Source: Escherichia phage T7
Strand: one strand, 5' to 3'
DNA: 36,942 bases
Sequence record: MZ318361
Shown here: positions 499 to 36,942 of the stretch, piece after piece
Layout: the number at the start of each line of letters is the position of its first letter
How positions within the stretch are numbered: position 1 is the first letter of the stretch
The notes under the pieces: model-generated
The model's database searches: none
Told to the model about the DNA's origin: nothing
Seen by the model: the letters and a program-made list of their open reading frames with translations, nothing else
Position numbers and translations under genes: made by a program

Positions 499-578
499 TC
501 GAGAGGGACACGGCGAATAGCCATCCCAATCGACACCGGGGTCAACCGGATAAGTAGACAGCCTGATAAGTCGCACGA

Positions 579-1002: not shown

Positions 1003-3654
1003 ATGAACACGATTAACATCGCTAAGAACGACTTCTCTGACATCGAACTGGCTGCTATCCCGTTCAACACTCTGGCTGACCATTACGGTGAGCGTTTAGC
1101 TCGCGAACAGTTGGCCCTTGAGCATGAGTCTTACGAGATGGGTGAAGCACGCTTCCGCAAGATGTTTGAGCGTCAACTTAAAGCTGGTGAGGTTGCGGAT
1201 AACGCTGCCGCCAAGCCTCTCATCACTACCCTACTCCCTAAGATGATTGCACGCATCAACGACTGGTTTGAGGAAGTGAAAGCTAAGCGCGGCAAGCGCC
1301 CGACAGCCTTCCAGTTCCTGCAAGAAATCAAGCCGGAAGCCGTAGCGTACATCACCATTAAGACCACTCTGGCTTGCCTAACCAGTGCTGACAATACAAC
1401 CGTTCAGGCTGTAGCAAGCGCAATCGGTCGGGCCATTGAGGACGAGGCTCGCTTCGGTCGTATCCGTGACCTTGAAGCTAAGCACTTCAAGAAAAACGTT
1501 GAGGAACAACTCAACAAGCGCGTAGGGCACGTCTACAAGAAAGCATTTATGCAAGTTGTCGAGGCTGACATGCTCTCTAAGGGTCTACTCGGTGGCGAGG
1601 CGTGGTCTTCGTGGCATAAGGAAGACTCTATTCATGTAGGAGTACGCTGCATCGAGATGCTCATTGAGTCAACCGGAATGGTTAGCTTACACCGCCAAAA
1701 TGCTGGCGTAGTAGGTCAAGACTCTGAGACTATCGAACTCGCACCTGAATACGCTGAGGCTATCGCAACCCGTGCAGGTGCGCTGGCTGGCATCTCTCCG
1801 ATGTTCCAACCTTGCGTAGTTCCTCCTAAGCCGTGGACTGGCATTACTGGTGGTGGCTATTGGGCTAACGGTCGTCGTCCTCTGGCGCTGGTGCGTACTC
1901 ACAGTAAGAAAGCACTGATGCGCTACGAAGACGTTTACATGCCTGAGGTGTACAAAGCGATTAACATTGCGCAAAACACCGCATGGAAAATCAACAAGAA
2001 AGTCCTAGCGGTCGCCAACGTAATCACCAAGTGGAAGCATTGTCCGGTCGAGGACATCCCTGCGATTGAGCGTGAAGAACTCCCGATGAAACCGGAAGAC
2101 ATCGACATGAATCCTGAGGCTCTCACCGCGTGGAAACGTGCTGCCGCTGCTGTGTACCGCAAGGACAAGGCTCGCAAGTCTCGCCGTATCAGCCTTGAGT
2201 TCATGCTTGAGCAAGCCAATAAGTTTGCTAACCATAAGGCCATCTGGTTCCCTTACAACATGGACTGGCGCGGTCGTGTTTACGCTGTGTCAATGTTCAA
2301 CCCGCAAGGTAACGATATGACCAAAGGACTGCTTACGCTGGCGAAAGGTAAACCAATCGGTAAGGAAGGTTACTACTGGCTGAAAATCCACGGTGCAAAC
2401 TGTGCGGGTGTCGATAAGGTTCCGTTCCCTGAGCGCATCAAGTTCATTGAGGAAAACCACGAGAACATCATGGCTTGCGCTAAGTCTCCACTGGAGAACA
2501 CTTGGTGGGCTGAGCAAGATTCTCCGTTCTGCTTCCTTGCGTTCTGCTTTGAGTACGCTGGGGTACAGCACCACGGCCTGAGCTATAACTGCTCCCTTCC
2601 GCTGGCGTTTGACGGGTCTTGCTCTGGCATCCAGCACTTCTCCGCGATGCTCCGAGATGAGGTAGGTGGTCGCGCGGTTAACTTGCTTCCTAGTGAAACC
2701 GTTCAGGACATCTACGGGATTGTTGCTAAGAAAGTCAACGAGATTCTACAAGCAGACGCAATCAATGGGACCGATAACGAAGTAGTTACCGTGACCGATG
2801 AGAACACTGGTGAAATCTCTGAGAAAGTCAAGCTGGGCACTAAGGCACTGGCTGGTCAATGGCTGGCTTACGGTGTTACTCGCAGTGTGACTAAGCGTTC
2901 AGTCATGACGCTGGCTTACGGGTCCAAAGAGTTCGGCTTCCGTCAACAAGTGCTGGAAGATACCATTCAGCCAGCTATTGATTCCGGCAAGGGTCTGATG
3001 TTCACTCAGCCGAATCAGGCTGCTGGATACATGGCTAAGCTGATTTGGGAATCTGTGAGCGTGACGGTGGTAGCTGCGGTTGAAGCAATGAACTGGCTTA
3101 AGTCTGCTGCTAAGCTGCTGGCTGCTGAGGTCAAAGATAAGAAGACTGGAGAGATTCTTCGCAAGCGTTGCGCTGTGCATTGGGTAACTCCTGATGGTTT
3201 CCCTGTGTGGCAGGAATACAAGAAGCCTATTCAGACGCGCTTGAACCTGATGTTCCTCGGTCAGTTCCGCTTACAGCCTACCATTAACACCAACAAAGAT
3301 AGCGAGATTGATGCACACAAACAGGAGTCTGGTATCGCTCCTAACTTTGTACACAGCCAAGACGGTAGCCACCTTCGTAAGACTGTAGTGTGGGCACACG
3401 AGAAGTACGGAATCGAATCTTTTGCACTGATTCACGACTCCTTCGGTACCATTCCGGCTGACGCTGCGAACCTGTTCAAAGCAGTGCGCGAAACTATGGT
3501 TGACACATATGAGTCTTGTGATGTACTGGCTGATTTCTACGACCAGTTCGCTGACCAGTTGCACGAGTCTCAATTGGACAAAATGCCAGCACTTCCGGCT
3601 AAAGGTAACTTGAACTTCCGTGACATCTTAGAGTCGGACTTCGCGTTCGCGTAA
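1003..3654 (+). CDS. gp1: T7 RNA polymerase
   Basis: 883-aa ORF beginning MNTINIAKNDFSDIELAAIPFNTLADHYGERLAREQLALEHESYEMGEARFRKMF and ending ...FAFA; recognised single-subunit RNAP. Confidence 0.98.
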   Translation: MNTINIAKNDFSDIELAAIPFNTLADHYGERLAREQLALEHESYEMGEARFRKMFERQLKAGEVADNAAAKPLITTLLPKMIARINDWFEEVKAKRGKRPTAFQFLQEIKPEAVAYITIKTTLACLTSADNTTVQAVASAIGRAIEDEARFGRIRDLEAKHFKKNVEEQLNKRVGHVYKKAFMQVVEADMLSKGLLGGEAWSSWHKEDSIHVGVRCIEMLIESTGMVSLHRQNAGVVGQDSETIELAPEYAEAIATRAGALAGISPMFQPCVVPPKPWTGITGGGYWANGRRPLALVRTHSKKALMRYEDVYMPEVYKAINIAQNTAWKINKKVLAVANVITKWKHCPVEDIPAIEREELPMKPEDIDMNPEALTAWKRAAAAVYRKDKARKSRRISLEFMLEQANKFANHKAIWFPYNMDWRGRVYAVSMFNPQGNDMTKGLLTLAKGKPIGKEGYYWLKIHGANCAGVDKVPFPERIKFIEENHENIMACAKSPLENTWWAEQDSPFCFLAFCFEYAGVQHHGLSYNCSLPLAFDGSCSGIQHFSAMLRDEVGGRAVNLLPSETVQDIYGIVAKKVNEILQADAINGTDNEVVTVTDENTGEISEKVKLGTKALAGQWLAYGVTRSVTKRSVMTLAYGSKEFGFRQQVLEDTIQPAIDSGKGLMFTQPNQAAGYMAKLIWESVSVTVVAAVEAMNWLKSAAKLLAAEVKDKKTGEILRKRCAVHWVTPDGFPVWQEYKKPIQTRLNLMFLGQFRLQPTINTNKDSEIDAHKQESGIAPNFVHSQDGSHLRKTVVWAHEKYGIESFALIHDSFGTIPADAANLFKAVRETMVDTYESCDVLADFYDQFADQLHESQLDKMPALPAKGNLNFRDILESDFAFA

Positions 3655-5439: not shown

Positions 5440-5592
5440 ATGTTTAAGAAGGTTGGTAAATTCCTTGCGGCTTTGGCAGCTATCCTGACGCTTGCGTATA
5501 TTCTTGCGGTATACCCTCAAGTAGCACTAGTAGTTGGCGCTTGTTACTTAGCGGCAGTGTGTGCTTGCGTGTGGAGTATAGTTAACTGGTAA
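5440..5592 (+). CDS. gp1.4: Gene 1.4 small hydrophobic protein
   Basis: ORF MFKKVGKFLAALAAILTLAYILAVYPQVALVVGACYLAAVCACVWSIVNW. Confidence 0.75.
   Translation: MFKKVGKFLAALAAILTLAYILAVYPQVALVVGACYLAAVCACVWSIVNW

Positions 5593-8534: not shown

Positions 8535-8535
<1 letters not shown>
8086..8535 (+). CDS. gp3: Endonuclease I (Holliday-junction resolvase)
   Basis: 149-aa ORF from MAGYGAKGIRKVGAFRSGLEDKVSKQLE; track ORF starts further upstream at a non-native Met. Confidence 0.9.
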
Positions 8536-10799
<2,264 letters not shown>

Positions 10800-11059: not shown

Positions 11060-11329
11060 ATGTCTAACGTAGCTGAAACTATCCGTCTATCCGATACAGC
11101 TGACCAGTGGAACCGTCGAGTCCACATCAACGTTCGCAACGGTAAGGCGACTATGGTTTACCGCTGGAAGGACTCTAAGTCCTCTAAGAATCACACTCAG
11201 CGTATGACGTTGACAGATGAGCAAGCACTGCGTCTGGTCAATGCGCTTACCAAAGCTGCCGTGACAGCAATTCATGAAGCTGGTCGCGTCAATGAAGCTA
11301 TGGCTATCCTCGACAAGATTGATAACTAA
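11060..11329 (+). CDS. gp4.5: Gene 4.5 protein
   Basis: 89-aa ORF from MSNVAETIRLSDTADQWNRRVHINV; AGGAG Shine-Dalgarno. Confidence 0.85.
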   Translation: MSNVAETIRLSDTADQWNRRVHINVRNGKATMVYRWKDSKSSKNHTQRMTLTDEQALRLVNALTKAAVTAIHEAGRVNEAMAILDKIDN

Positions 11330-31997: not shown

Positions 31998-33659
31998 ATG
32001 GCTAACGTAATTAAAACCGTTTTGACTTACCAGTTAGATGGCTCCAATCGTGATTTTAATATCCCGTTTGAGTATCTAGCCCGTAAGTTCGTAGTGGTAA
32101 CTCTTATTGGTGTAGACCGAAAGGTCCTTACGATTAATACAGACTATCGCTTTGCTACACGTACTACTATCTCTCTGACAAAGGCTTGGGGTCCAGCCGA
32201 TGGCTACACGACCATCGAGTTACGTCGAGTAACCTCCACTACCGACCGATTGGTTGACTTTACGGATGGTTCAATCCTCCGCGCGTATGACCTTAACGTC
32301 GCTCAGATTCAAACGATGCACGTAGCGGAAGAGGCCCGTGACCTCACTACGGATACTATCGGTGTCAATAACGATGGTCACTTGGATGCTCGTGGTCGTC
32401 GAATTGTGAACCTAGCGAACGCCGTGGATGACCGCGATGCTGTTCCGTTTGGTCAACTAAAGACCATGAACCAGAACTCATGGCAAGCACGTAATGAAGC
32501 CTTACAGTTCCGTAATGAGGCTGAGACTTTCAGAAACCAAGCGGAGGGCTTTAAGAACGAGTCCAGTACCAACGCTACGAACACAAAGCAGTGGCGCGAT
32601 GAGACCAAGGGTTTCCGAGACGAAGCCAAGCGGTTCAAGAATACGGCTGGTCAATACGCTACATCTGCTGGGAACTCTGCTTCCGCTGCGCATCAATCTG
32701 AGGTAAACGCTGAGAACTCTGCCACAGCATCCGCTAACTCTGCTCATTTGGCAGAACAGCAAGCAGACCGTGCGGAACGTGAGGCAGACAAGCTGGAAAA
32801 TTACAATGGATTGGCTGGTGCAATTGATAAGGTAGATGGAACCAATGTGTACTGGAAAGGAAATATTCACGCTAACGGGCGCCTTTACATGACCACAAAC
32901 GGTTTTGACTGTGGCCAGTATCAACAGTTCTTTGGTGGTGTCACTAATCGTTACTCTGTCATGGAGTGGGGAGATGAGAACGGATGGCTGATGTATGTTC
33001 AACGTAGAGAGTGGACAACAGCGATAGGCGGTAACATCCAGTTAGTAGTAAACGGACAGATCATCACCCAAGGTGGAGCCATGACCGGTCAGCTAAAATT
33101 GCAGAATGGGCATGTTCTTCAATTAGAGTCCGCATCCGACAAGGCGCACTATATTCTATCTAAAGATGGTAACAGGAATAACTGGTACATTGGTAGAGGG
33201 TCAGATAACAACAATGACTGTACCTTCCACTCCTATGTACATGGTACGACCTTAACACTCAAGCAGGACTATGCAGTAGTTAACAAACACTTCCACGTAG
33301 GTCAGGCCGTTGTGGCCACTGATGGTAATATTCAAGGTACTAAGTGGGGAGGTAAATGGCTGGATGCTTACCTACGTGACAGCTTCGTTGCGAAGTCCAA
33401 GGCGTGGACTCAGGTGTGGTCTGGTAGTGCTGGCGGTGGGGTAAGTGTGACTGTTTCACAGGATCTCCGCTTCCGCAATATCTGGATTAAGTGTGCCAAC
33501 AACTCTTGGAACTTCTTCCGTACTGGCCCCGATGGAATCTACTTCATAGCCTCTGATGGTGGATGGTTACGATTCCAAATACACTCCAACGGTCTCGGAT
33601 TCAAGAATATTGCAGACAGTCGTTCAGTACCTAATGCAATCATGGTGGAGAACGAGTAA
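31998..33659 (+). CDS. gp17: Tail fiber protein
   Basis: 553-aa ORF MANVIKTVLTYQLDGSNRDFNIPFEYLARKF... Confidence 0.95.
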   Translation: MANVIKTVLTYQLDGSNRDFNIPFEYLARKFVVVTLIGVDRKVLTINTDYRFATRTTISLTKAWGPADGYTTIELRRVTSTTDRLVDFTDGSILRAYDLNVAQIQTMHVAEEARDLTTDTIGVNNDGHLDARGRRIVNLANAVDDRDAVPFGQLKTMNQNSWQARNEALQFRNEAETFRNQAEGFKNESSTNATNTKQWRDETKGFRDEAKRFKNTAGQYATSAGNSASAAHQSEVNAENSATASANSAHLAEQQADRAEREADKLENYNGLAGAIDKVDGTNVYWKGNIHANGRLYMTTNGFDCGQYQQFFGGVTNRYSVMEWGDENGWLMYVQRREWTTAIGGNIQLVVNGQIITQGGAMTGQLKLQNGHVLQLESASDKAHYILSKDGNRNNWYIGRGSDNNNDCTFHSYVHGTTLTLKQDYAVVNKHFHVGQAVVATDGNIQGTKWGGKWLDAYLRDSFVAKSKAWTQVWSGSAGGGVSVTVSQDLRFRNIWIKCANNSWNFFRTGPDGIYFIASDGGWLRFQIHSNGLGFKNIADSRSVPNAIMVENE

Positions 33660-33717
33660 TTGGTAAATCACAAGGAAAGACGTGTAGTCCACGGATGGAC
33701 TCTCAAGGAGGTACAAG

Positions 33718-33987
33718 ATGGAAAAGGATAAGAGCCTTATTACATTCTTAGAGATGTTGGACACTGCGATGGCTCAGCGTATGCTTGCGGACCTTTCGGA
33801 CCATGAGCGTCGCTCTCCGCAACTCTATAATGCTATTAACAAACTGTTAGACCGCCACAAGTTCCAGATTGGTAAGTTGCAGCCGGATGTTCACATCTTA
33901 GGTGGCCTTGCTGGTGCTCTTGAAGAGTACAAAGAGAAAGTCGGTGATAACGGTCTTACGGATGATGATATTTACACATTACAGTGA
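33718..33987 (+). CDS. gp18: DNA maturation/packaging protein A (small terminase)
   Basis: 89-aa ORF MEKDKSLITFLEMLDTAMAQRMLADLSDHERRSPQLYNAINKLL... Confidence 0.9.
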   Translation: MEKDKSLITFLEMLDTAMAQRMLADLSDHERRSPQLYNAINKLLDRHKFQIGKLQPDVHILGGLAGALEEYKEKVGDNGLTDDDIYTLQ

Positions 33988-34081
33988 CTCGAGAGGATCC
34001 ACTACAGATAGTGGTCTTTATGGATGTCATTGTCTATACGAGATGCTCCTACGTGAAATCTGAAAGTTAACGGGAGGCATT

Positions 34082-34513
34082 ATGCTAGAATTTTTACGTA
34101 AGCTAATCCCTTGGGTTCTCGCTGGGATGCTATTCGGGTTAGGATGGCATCTAGGGTCAGACTCAATGGACGCTAAATGGAAACAGGAGGTACACAATGA
34201 GTACGTTAAGAGAGTTGAGGCTGCGAAGAGCACTCAAAGAGCAATCGATGCGGTATCTGCTAAGTATCAAGAAGACCTTGCCGCGCTGGAAGGGAGCACT
34301 GATAGGATTATTTCTGATTTGCGTAGCGACAATAAGCGGTTGCGCGTCAGAGTCAAAACTACCGGAACCTCCGATGGTCAGTGTGGATTCGAGCCTGATG
34401 GTCGAGCCGAACTTGACGACCGAGATGCTAAACGTATTCTCGCAGTGACCCAGAAGGGTGACGCATGGATTCGTGCGTTACAGGATACTATTCGTGAACT
34501 GCAACGTAAGTAG
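34082..34513 (+). CDS. gp18.5: Rz-like inner-membrane spanin
   Basis: 143-aa ORF with N-terminal transmembrane segment LIPWVLAGMLFGLGW and coiled-coil-like remainder. Confidence 0.85.
   Translation: MLEFLRKLIPWVLAGMLFGLGWHLGSDSMDAKWKQEVHNEYVKRVEAAKSTQRAIDAVSAKYQEDLAALEGSTDRIISDLRSDNKRLRVRVKTTGTSDGQCGFEPDGRAELDDRDAKRILAVTQKGDAWIRALQDTIRELQRK
34197..34448 (+). CDS. gp18.7: Rz1-like outer-membrane lipoprotein spanin, embedded in gene 18.5 in another frame
   Basis: 83-aa ORF wholly inside 18.5; lipobox-like LICVATISGCAS followed by a proline-rich segment. Confidence 0.75.
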   Translation: MSTLRELRLRRALKEQSMRYLLSIKKTLPRWKGALIGLFLICVATISGCASESKLPEPPMVSVDSSLMVEPNLTTEMLNVFSQ

Positions 34514-34534: not shown

Positions 34535-36295
34535 GTGTCTACTCAATCCAATCGTAATGCGCTCGTAGTGGCGCAACTGAAAGGAGACTTCGTGGCGTTC
34601 CTATTCGTCTTATGGAAGGCGCTAAACCTACCGGTGCCCACTAAGTGTCAGATTGACATGGCTAAGGTGCTGGCGAATGGAGACAACAAGAAGTTCATCT
34701 TACAGGCTTTCCGTGGTATCGGTAAGTCGTTCATCACATGTGCGTTCGTTGTGTGGTCCTTATGGAGAGACCCTCAGTTGAAGATACTTATCGTATCAGC
34801 CTCTAAGGAGCGTGCAGACGCTAACTCCATCTTTATTAAGAACATCATTGACCTGCTGCCATTCCTATCTGAGTTAAAGCCAAGACCCGGACAGCGTGAC
34901 TCGGTAATCAGCTTTGATGTAGGCCCAGCCAATCCTGACCACTCTCCTAGTGTGAAATCAGTAGGTATCACTGGTCAGTTAACTGGTAGCCGTGCTGACA
35001 TTATCATTGCGGATGACGTTGAGATTCCGTCTAACAGCGCAACTATGGGTGCCCGTGAGAAGCTATGGACTCTGGTTCAGGAGTTCGCTGCGTTACTTAA
35101 ACCGCTGCCTTCCTCTCGCGTTATCTACCTTGGTACACCTCAGACAGAGATGACTCTCTATAAGGAACTTGAGGATAACCGTGGGTACACAACCATTATC
35201 TGGCCTGCTCTGTACCCAAGGACACGTGAAGAGAACCTCTATTACTCACAGCGTCTTGCTCCTATGTTACGCGCTGAGTACGATGAGAACCCTGAGGCAC
35301 TTGCTGGGACTCCAACAGACCCAGTGCGCTTTGACCGTGATGACCTGCGCGAGCGTGAGTTGGAATACGGTAAGGCTGGCTTTACGCTACAGTTCATGCT
35401 TAACCCTAACCTTAGTGATGCCGAGAAGTACCCGCTGAGGCTTCGTGACGCTATCGTAGCGGCCTTAGACTTAGAGAAGGCCCCAATGCATTACCAGTGG
35501 CTTCCGAACCGTCAGAACATCATTGAGGACCTTCCTAACGTTGGCCTTAAGGGTGATGACCTGCATACGTACCACGATTGTTCCAACAACTCAGGTCAGT
35601 ACCAACAGAAGATTCTGGTCATTGACCCTAGTGGTCGCGGTAAGGACGAAACAGGTTACGCTGTGCTGTACACACTGAACGGTTACATCTACCTTATGGA
35701 AGCTGGAGGTTTCCGTGATGGCTACTCCGATAAGACCCTTGAGTTACTCGCTAAGAAGGCAAAGCAATGGGGAGTCCAAACGGTTGTCTACGAGAGTAAC
35801 TTCGGTGACGGTATGTTCGGTAAGGTATTCAGTCCTATCCTTCTTAAACACCACAACTGTGCGATGGAAGAGATTCGTGCCCGTGGTATGAAAGAGATGC
35901 GTATTTGCGATACCCTTGAGCCAGTCATGCAGACTCACCGCCTTGTAATTCGTGATGAGGTCATTAGGGCCGACTACCAGTCCGCTCGTGACGTAGACGG
36001 TAAGCATGACGTTAAGTACTCGTTGTTCTACCAGATGACCCGTATCACTCGTGAGAAAGGCGCTCTGGCTCATGATGACCGATTGGATGCCCTTGCGTTA
36101 GGCATTGAGTATCTCCGTGAGTCCATGCAGTTGGATTCCGTTAAGGTCGAGGGTGAAGTACTTGCTGACTTCCTTGAGGAACACATGATGCGTCCTACGG
36201 TTGCTGCTACGCATATCATTGAGATGTCTGTGGGAGGAGTTGATGTGTACTCTGAGGACGATGAGGGTTACGGTACGTCTTTCATTGAGTGGTGA
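34535..36295 (+). CDS. gp19: DNA maturation/packaging protein B (large terminase)
   Basis: 586-aa GTG-initiated [22 protein letters not shown]...; AGGAGG Shine-Dalgarno. Confidence 0.95.
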
Positions 36296-36376
36296 TTTAT
36301 GCATTAGGACTGCATAGGGATGCACTATAGACCACGGATGGTCAGTTCTTTAAGTTACTGAAAAGACACGATAAAT

Positions 36377-36399
36377 TAATACGACTCACTATAGGGAGA
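36377..36399 (+). promoter_or_regulatory. T7 promoter phiOR (perfect consensus)
   Basis: TAATACGACTCACTATAGGGAGA. Confidence 0.9.
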
Positions 36400-36553
36400 G
36401 GAGGGACGAAAGGTTACTATATAGATACTGAATGAATACTTATAGAGTGCATAAAGTATGCATAATGGTGTACCTAGAGTGACCTCTAAGAATGGTGATT
36501 ATATTGTATTAGTATCACCTTAACTTAAGGACCAACATAAAGGGAGGAGACTC

Positions 36554-36703
36554 ATGTTCCGCTTATTGTTGAACCTACTGCGGCATAGAGTCACCTACCG
36601 ATTTCTTGTGGTACTTTGTGCTGACCTTGGGTACGCATCTCTTACTGGAGACCTCAGTTCACTGGAGTCTGTCGTTTGCTCTATACTCACTTGTAGCGAT
36701 TAG
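36554..36703 (+). CDS. gp19.5: Gene 19.5 small protein
   Basis: 49-aa ORF MFRLLLNLLRHRVTYRFLVVLCADLGYASLTGDLSSLESVVCSILTCSD after a GGGAGGAG Shine-Dalgarno. Confidence 0.7.
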   Translation: MFRLLLNLLRHRVTYRFLVVLCADLGYASLTGDLSSLESVVCSILTCSD

Positions 36704-36795
36704 GGTCTTCCTGACCGACTGATGGCTCACCGAGGGATTCAGCGGTATGATTGCATCACACCACTTCATCCCTATAGAGTCAAGTCCTGAGGTAT

Positions 36796-36872
36796 ACCCA
36801 TAAAGAGCCTCTAATGGTCTATCCTAAGGTCTATACCTAAAGATAGGCCATCCTATCAGTGTCACCTAAAGA
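36796..36872. repeat. Right-end short CCTAAAG-like repeats adjacent to the right terminal repeat
   Basis: CCATAAAGAG, TCCTAAGGTC, ACCTAAAGAT, ACCTAAAGAG recur; window stops at ...ATCTGAGTGACTA, where I expect the right terminal repeat to begin. Confidence 0.55.
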
Positions 36873-36942
36873 GGGTCTTAGAGAGGGCCTATGGAGTTCC
36901 TATAGGGTCCTTTAAAATATACCATAAAAATCTGAGTGACTA

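Follow-up and report, generated by a model that had tools for sequence, protein, structure and literature searches.

The analysed stretch of DNA, which has a length of 36,942 nucleotides and is called the window below, is with a probability of roughly 95% the T7Select415-1b vector with the holin gene 17.5 deliberately deleted, a member of the T7-delta-holin series of Xu et al. and most likely its passage F1 (MZ318361). The missing holin is already known, being the property of a published laboratory construct with a measured lysis delay, and does not represent a new natural feature. In the work of Xu et al. 2021 (Front Microbiol 12:705310), gene 17.5 was removed from T7Select415-1b and the phage was carried through 20 passages, and passages F1, F10, and F20 were sequenced and deposited as MZ318361-MZ318363 (PMC8365609).

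The structural examination of the locus revealed that the genes on both sides of the deletion are intact. Gene 17, encoding the tail fibre of 553 amino acids, is located at 31998..33659 on the plus strand with its TAA at 33657-33659, and both the ORF list and the alignment show that it is the same as in wild-type T7. The following 58 nucleotides (33660..33717, plus strand) are the spacer between genes 17 and 17.5 and correspond to V01146 36286-36343 with no base changed. This spacer contains the Shine-Dalgarno sequence of gene 17.5, AAGGAGGT (33705-33712, plus strand), and the five nucleotides ACAAG (33713-33717, plus strand) that separate it from the start codon. The coding sequence that starts immediately afterwards is that of gene 18 (33718..33987, plus strand), which encodes the small terminase subunit or DNA packaging protein of 89 amino acids and is the same as in wild type. 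By direct read, the junction between 33717 and 33718 consists of ...CAAGGAGGTACAAG and then ATGGAAAAGG, and with a longer left flank it consists of ...CTCAAGGAGGTACAAG and then ATGGAAAAGG; in wild-type T7, CTCAAGGAGGTACAAG stands directly before the start codon of gene 17.5.

When we aligned the window to the wild-type reference V01146, in which genes 17, 17.5, and 18 occupy 34624-36285, 36344-36547, and 36553-36822, respectively, both BLAST and global alignment joined position 36343 to position 36553. The 209 bp lost (V01146 36344-36552) comprise gene 17.5, which measures 204 bp from GTG to TGA, and a 5-nt TATGT spacer. In wild-type T7, gene 18 sits 5 nt downstream of the stop codon of gene 17.5, whereas in the window the gene 18 ATG at 33718 occupies the position of the gene 17.5 GTG. 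The native Shine-Dalgarno sequence of gene 18, TAAGGAG, is located inside the 3' end of gene 17.5 and went with the deletion. Gene 17, the spacer, gene 18, genes 18.5/18.7, and gene 3.5 all match V01146 base for base. The initial annotation had read a gap of 58 nt between the gene 17 stop at 33659 and the gene 18 ATG at 33718, had placed a gene 17.5 of about 200 bp here in wild type, and had proposed an exact start-codon-to-start-codon excision that puts gene 18 behind the 17.5 ribosome-binding site. These claims are borne out by the direct read, the ORF list, and the alignment to the T7 reference, which does carry gene 17.5 between genes 17 and 18. The ribosome-binding context of gene 17.5 had also been given correctly, and the only correction is that the start codon of this gene in V01146 is GTG, not ATG.

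The relation of the window to the T7-delta-holin series was evident from the database comparison. The megablast search of positions 33300-34300 against phage records gave 230 matching records, and among the matches listed only MZ318362.1 and MZ318363.1 aligned in a single piece at 100% identity. These two are named "T7 isolate T7_del_holin_F10" and "F20", with BL21 as the host, while all of the other matches listed (28 of 28) contain the extra 209 bp, annotated as holin or gene 17.5. Over the 36,942 bp, the window differs from F10 (MZ318362) by five single bases and from F20 (MZ318363) by nine, and the length, the backbone, the 17.5 junction, an XhoI/BamHI scar behind gene 18, and the gp19.5-A24D substitution are common to all three. 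Since homologues of gp17.5 are present in 1,159 phage records, the absence of the holin in the window does not reflect natural variation within the family.

The comparison of the whole window with V01146 gave five collinear blocks with 99.66-100% identity, which reveal the engineered backbone. First, window 578/579 joins V01146 578 to about 2747, so that 579 to about 2746 is lost (the 0.3-0.7 deletion). The wild-type flanks of this deletion are an 11-bp direct repeat, AAGTCGCACGA (window 568-578), and the backbone deletion is consistent with a spontaneous origin. Second, window 8991/8992 joins V01146 11162 to 11516, which removes 11163-11515 in the gene 3.8 region. The backbone deletions of T7Select415-1b are given by Xu et al. 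as 579-2717 and 11163-11515 (PMC8365609). The right end of the 0.3-0.7 deletion in the window lies at about V01146 2746, and not at the 2717 of the paper. Third, gene 10 is truncated and fused to a cloning site: the recoded 3' end of the gene and a BamHI-EcoRI-SacI-SalI-HindIII-NotI-XhoI cloning site occupy 21453..21537 on the plus strand, with the restriction sites at 21489-21534, and the product ends with ...GVMLGDPNSSSVDKLAAALE before the stop. This region is 100% identical to an independent public contig. We presume that the cloning site is that of T7Select415-1b, from the description by Xu et al. and the vendor sequence, and it is used here as a marker of this backbone. Finally, the window ends at 36942, which corresponds to V01146 39777, and the 160-bp right terminal repeat is absent, probably as an assembly-collapsed repeat and not as a matter of biology. 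Besides these, the holin deletion, and an 11-nt substitution after gene 18, the window departs from V01146 at about 20 further points, one of which is a 3-nt deletion in gene 1.4. The length difference of 2,995 bp from V01146 is fully covered by the two backbone deletions, the gene 10 change, the terminal repeat, the 209 bp, and the 3 nt. That the holin gene was deleted on purpose from a commercial display vector, in a laboratory construct already published, had been missed by the initial annotation.

Detailed comparison of the window with the published construction revealed that the deposited sequence departs from it at two places. The methods of Xu et al. describe a 204-bp deletion with an SphI ligation, the use of the SfiI site for swapping in the deletion-bearing right arm, and de novo assembly of the genomes with SPAdes (PMC8365609). 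The sole SfiI site in the window, GGCCNNNNNGGCC, is located at 33305..33317. The published primers R1 and F2 predict a junction of ...GGAGGTACAAG-GCATGC-TATGT-ATGG, with an SphI site and 204 bp removed. However, the window lacks SphI sites altogether, the 11 nt predicted from the primers are also absent, and 209 bp are gone instead of 204. The second place is located directly after the gene 18 stop, where engineered XhoI and BamHI sites, CTCGAGAGGATCC, are found at 33988..34000. They are created by an 11-nt substitution of the same length at 33988-33998, in which the wild-type TATACTCAAGG is replaced by CTCGAGAGGAT. This substitution, which had escaped the initial annotation just past gene 18, is unmentioned in Xu et al. 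and overlaps the sites of primers R3 and F18.5, both of which are wild-type in sequence.

Among phage records, the XhoI/BamHI scar is present only in the T7_del_holin deposits, and the IMG/VR viral contigs gave 0 matches to the scar and 0 to the deletion junction. The 2018 T7 vector paper of the same group describes engineering at position 578 only and nothing near gene 18. The records AY264775/6 were considered and rejected; they are slightly closer downstream of gene 18 by one SNP only and carry no engineered site. RNA folding places the XhoI/BamHI substitution in a predicted hairpin just upstream of gene 18.5, which we take to be the place of the R18.5 RNase III processing site of T7. The predicted fold is retained and its inner part is altered, with -31.1 kcal/mol for the window compared with -32.7 kcal/mol for the wild type.

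The simplest reading of these observations is that the sequenced phage was made by another design than the Methods state. An earlier published design fits the junction, since the T7 Δ17.5 phage of Heineman, Bull and Molineux 2009 (Mol Biol Evol 26:1289) has bp 36343 joined to bp 36553 (PMC2680503), exactly as in the window. The two phages are nevertheless different: T7 Δ17.5 was derived from wild-type T7+ by recombination with a plasmid, whereas the window has the T7Select deletions and the cloning site, and no XhoI/BamHI sites are mentioned for the 2009 phage, unlike the window. Here, we need to consider the possibility that the real phage has the published junction, with the SphI scar, TATGT, and wild-type sequence after gene 18, and that the clean junction and the XhoI/BamHI sites are artefacts of records that were partly reference-guided or edited in silico. 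The GCATGC-TATGT predicted by primers R1/F2, the match of R3 and F18.5 to the wild type where the window has CTCGAGAGGAT, and the stated 204-bp deletion and SphI ligation, set against a window lacking SphI, all speak for such an artefact. Nevertheless, we consider it improbable, because the junction and the scar are common to both deposits and the window while SPAdes de novo assembly is stated, because XhoI and BamHI are a specific pair of cloning sites that is not accidentally introduced, and because the identity of the junction with the earlier published design (PMC2680503) suggests a real alternative construct. The phage is without the holin under either reading, be it another design or in silico editing of the records. 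For curation, the departure of the deposited sequence from the published construction at two places is of modest value.

The other lysis genes were then compared with the canonical holin-endolysin-spanin system represented by lambda S/R/Rz/Rz1. The endolysin gp3.5 and the two-component spanin gp18.5/gp18.7 are intact in the window, whereas the holin component is missing. Gene 3.5 (8535..8990, plus strand) encodes N-acetylmuramoyl-L-alanine amidase, the endolysin and T7 RNA polymerase inhibitor, is identical to the wild type, and matches PF01510 Amidase_2 (2e-17) and phrog_822 (5.6e-80). Gene 18.5 (34082..34513, plus strand) encodes an Rz-like inner-membrane spanin that matches PF03245 and phrog_1327 and is the same as in wild type, and gene 18.7 (34197..34448, plus strand), which is embedded in gene 18.5, encodes an Rz1-like outer-membrane lipoprotein spanin that matches PF17531 O_Spanin_T7. 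These family matches and the base identity to V01146 agree with the statement of the initial annotation that amidase 3.5 and spanins 18.5/18.7 are kept. Self-export of gp3.5 in the manner of SAR endolysins is unlikely because no N-terminal hydrophobic segment was found: by a crude test, the maximum 19-residue Kyte-Doolittle mean was 0.18 within the N-terminal 40 residues and 0.89 over the whole protein.

We also considered whether holin function is kept through a relocated gene 17.5 or through a substitute holin of another family. Lysis still happens, the phage has several small hydrophobic T7 proteins (gp1.4, gp1.5, gp4.2, gp6.3, and gp19.5), and a second holin-like activity is suspected in the literature (PMC2680503), all of which could point in this direction. 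However, a tblastn search for gp17.5 remnants in the window gave nothing better than E = 1.5, and the deleted 209 bases had no nucleotide match in the window longer than 13 nt, in agreement with the earlier claim that no holin copy is present elsewhere in the genome. When we scanned 39 hydrophobic or lysis-related ORFs of the window from both strands against Pfam, none matched a holin family, and neither did any of the 10 window proteins that were also scanned against PHROGs, while the wild-type gp17.5 used as a positive control matched PF10746, the T7 holin family (7.5e-38), and phrog_920, a holin (1.2e-30). These searches are to be read with the caveat that holins are very diverse and that the hydrophobicity cut-off used here would miss gp17.5 itself. 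The Kyte-Doolittle scan for substitute holins, with a 19-residue window and a cut-off of 1.6, picked out gp1.4 (two segments), gp1.5, gp4.2, gp6.3, and gp18.7, but it is insensitive, with the genuine gp17.5 scoring 1.47, and was given little weight compared with the family searches. The initial annotation had seen no other small membrane-protein ORF of holin type; this has to be amended in that gp1.4, gp1.5, gp4.2, gp6.3, and gp19.5 are hydrophobic, and it stands in that none of them matches a holin family. Moreover, all of the hydrophobic genes are ordinary T7 genes that are in the wild type too, with nothing added, and the lysis delay described below shows that any back-up is not equivalent to gp17.5. 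Based on these observations, we regard a retained or replaced holin as very improbable.

Although T7 sheds non-essential DNA readily and the 0.3-0.7 deletion is flanked by an 11-bp direct repeat, a spontaneous natural loss of gene 17.5, whether in a wild T7 lineage or in a laboratory one, is effectively refuted. The holin deletion extends precisely from one start codon to the next with zero microhomology and adjoins engineered XhoI/BamHI sites, and the backbone is that of a vector and contains a synthetic cloning site. In addition, the records that match carry the name T7_del_holin, and the junction was not found in the IMG/VR viral contigs. The V01146 36343/36553 flanks have no microhomology at the ends of the holin deletion, in contrast to the 11-bp repeat at the 0.3-0.7 deletion, indicating that the junction was designed and is not spontaneous. 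A collapse of an SphI junction by spontaneous loss of GCATGCTATGT was also considered and rejected, because inspection showed no microhomology and the XhoI/BamHI sites would be left unexplained.

The effect of the deletion on lysis has been measured for the construct series. On BL21, the parent vector lysed at 15.2 min with a burst of 182, while the Δholin phage lysed at 29.3 min with a burst of 221 at F1 and at 23.7 min with a burst of 193 at F20 (PMC8365609). On a holin-expressing host, the Δholin F1, F10, and F20 phages lysed at 13.3-14.3 min with a burst of 174-175; thus the holin in trans rescues lysis, and the adsorption of the Δholin phage was the same as that of the parent (PMC8365609). 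The delayed or altered lysis that the initial annotation had predicted is therefore what was measured for the construct series. The T7 Δ17.5 phage of 2009 showed only a 2.8-min lysis delay with near-complete lysis, compared with a delay of about 14 min in Xu et al., and Heineman et al. concluded that T7 has other holin-like or membrane-damaging activity (PMC2680503). Lambda without its holin shows no lysis or a profound delay, whereas T7 without gp17.5 still lyses (PMC2680503), and this difference points to an additional membrane route that does not use gp17.5.

Based on these observations, we suggest the following mechanism. Gene 18, which is essential for packaging and has lost its own Shine-Dalgarno sequence, would be translated from that of gene 17.5, AAGGAGGT, with a spacing of 5 nt. 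We infer that enough gp18 is made from the borrowed ribosome-binding site, because the phage is viable. When gp17.5 is absent, the dedicated and timed lesion of the inner membrane would not form, and the cytoplasmic gp3.5 would reach the cell wall later, so that lysis is delayed but still occurs and more progeny accumulate per cell. The published experiments show that, once the timed gp17.5 lesion is lost, the amidase gains access to the cell wall later. A slower route without gp17.5 would eventually let the amidase across the membrane, and gp19.5, a small membrane protein with the A24D substitution in the window, is the leading candidate for a modulator of this gp17.5-independent route. How the T7 amidase crosses the inner membrane without gp17.5 is a question that has been recognised since 2009.

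Gene 19.5 (36554..36703, plus strand) encodes a small hydrophobic protein (DUF5465), and its A24D substitution (36624 C to A) is a candidate compensatory or lysis-modulating change. The substitution drops the Kyte-Doolittle hydrophobic peak of gp19.5 from 1.59 to 1.31. Of the four changes in the evolved Δ17.5 line of 2009, A24D was the only one that a recombination test showed to be strongly compensatory, Heineman et al. predicted that it destroys the transmembrane segment of gp19.5, and gp19.5 is the candidate of the literature for a cryptic lysis function (PMC2680503). A24D is also listed among the "F1 mutations" of Xu et al. (PMC8365609). When the gene 19.5 allele of the window was searched, only F10 was 100% identical among the best 40 of 176 records, and F20 keeps A24D with E38G as its sole further difference; E38G of gp19.5 was likewise reported in 2009 (PMC2680503). 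The exact gp19.5 protein was found on only two contigs, MZ318362 and a near-identical one, presumably MZ318361. The independent T7Select contigs in public assemblies are fragments of 1.2-4.1 kb, none of which covers the right end. In the window, A24D may be compensatory or may already have been present in the vector stock, and the same two origins apply to the loss of one codon in gene 1.4 described next.

A parallel change is seen in gene 1.4 (5440-5592), which encodes a protein of 50 amino acids (DUF5464) with two strongly hydrophobic segments. In the window, a 3-nt deletion near 5528 leaves gp1.4 with one Val codon fewer than in V01146. In F20, gp1.4 carries A35D (change at 5540), a second Ala-to-Asp substitution that falls within a hydrophobic stretch of a small protein and is undiscussed in the paper of Xu et al. 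(PMC8365609). It is a tentative and rather doubtful possibility that holin loss repeatedly selects gp19.5-A24D, which places a charge in the sole hydrophobic segment of the protein. If A24D arose independently of the 2009 T7+ line, gp19.5 would be a reproducible regulator of the gp17.5-independent lysis route, and gp1.4 may be a second protein of this route that gains an Ala-to-Asp change by passage 20. The idea about A24D was already raised in both papers; what is added here is that A24D recurs in another backbone and that gp1.4 shows a parallel change.

The assignment of the window to F1 was compared with Table 2 of Xu et al. The window fits F1 at four of the five sites that separate it from F10 (3125, 13960, 21473, and 24553) and does not fit at 14103. 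It lacks the changes at 3125, 13960, and 21473 that are shared by F10 and F20, and it has the F1-only change G780R in gene 12 (24553 A), where F10 and F20 carry the wild-type base. Either F10 and F20 are not descended from the F1 consensus genotype, or G780R was polymorphic and was then lost. At 14103 in gene 5.3, the window has the wild-type G, whereas Table 2 gives V49I (G to A) for all three passages, which means an error in the table or a window that departs slightly from the consensus of F1.

At least two of the F1 mutations listed by Xu et al. come from the vector backbone. These are gp7-V7M and gp7.7-G10D (window 16624 and 17352), which are also present on contigs of two unrelated runs, SRR9161225 and SRR23446325. 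The contigs match the window at 100% identity, and a separate contig of SRR23446325 has the capsid-cloning-site fusion of the vector. Their presence in unrelated sequencing runs indicates that gp7-V7M and gp7.7-G10D are polymorphisms of the vector backbone and not mutations that followed the deletion. The synonymous changes common to all three passages are probably backbone polymorphisms likewise, and Xu et al. evidently called their mutations against the vendor reference instead of a parent that had been resequenced. Changes that were reported as post-deletion but derive from the backbone weaken part of the evolutionary reading of Xu et al. Two further changes were observed in F10 and F20, and not in the window: the start codon of gene 5.3 is lost at 13960 (ATG to AGG), and at 21473 a new stop codon (residue 344) truncates the capsid fusion, so that the capsid protein no longer carries the cloning-site tail.
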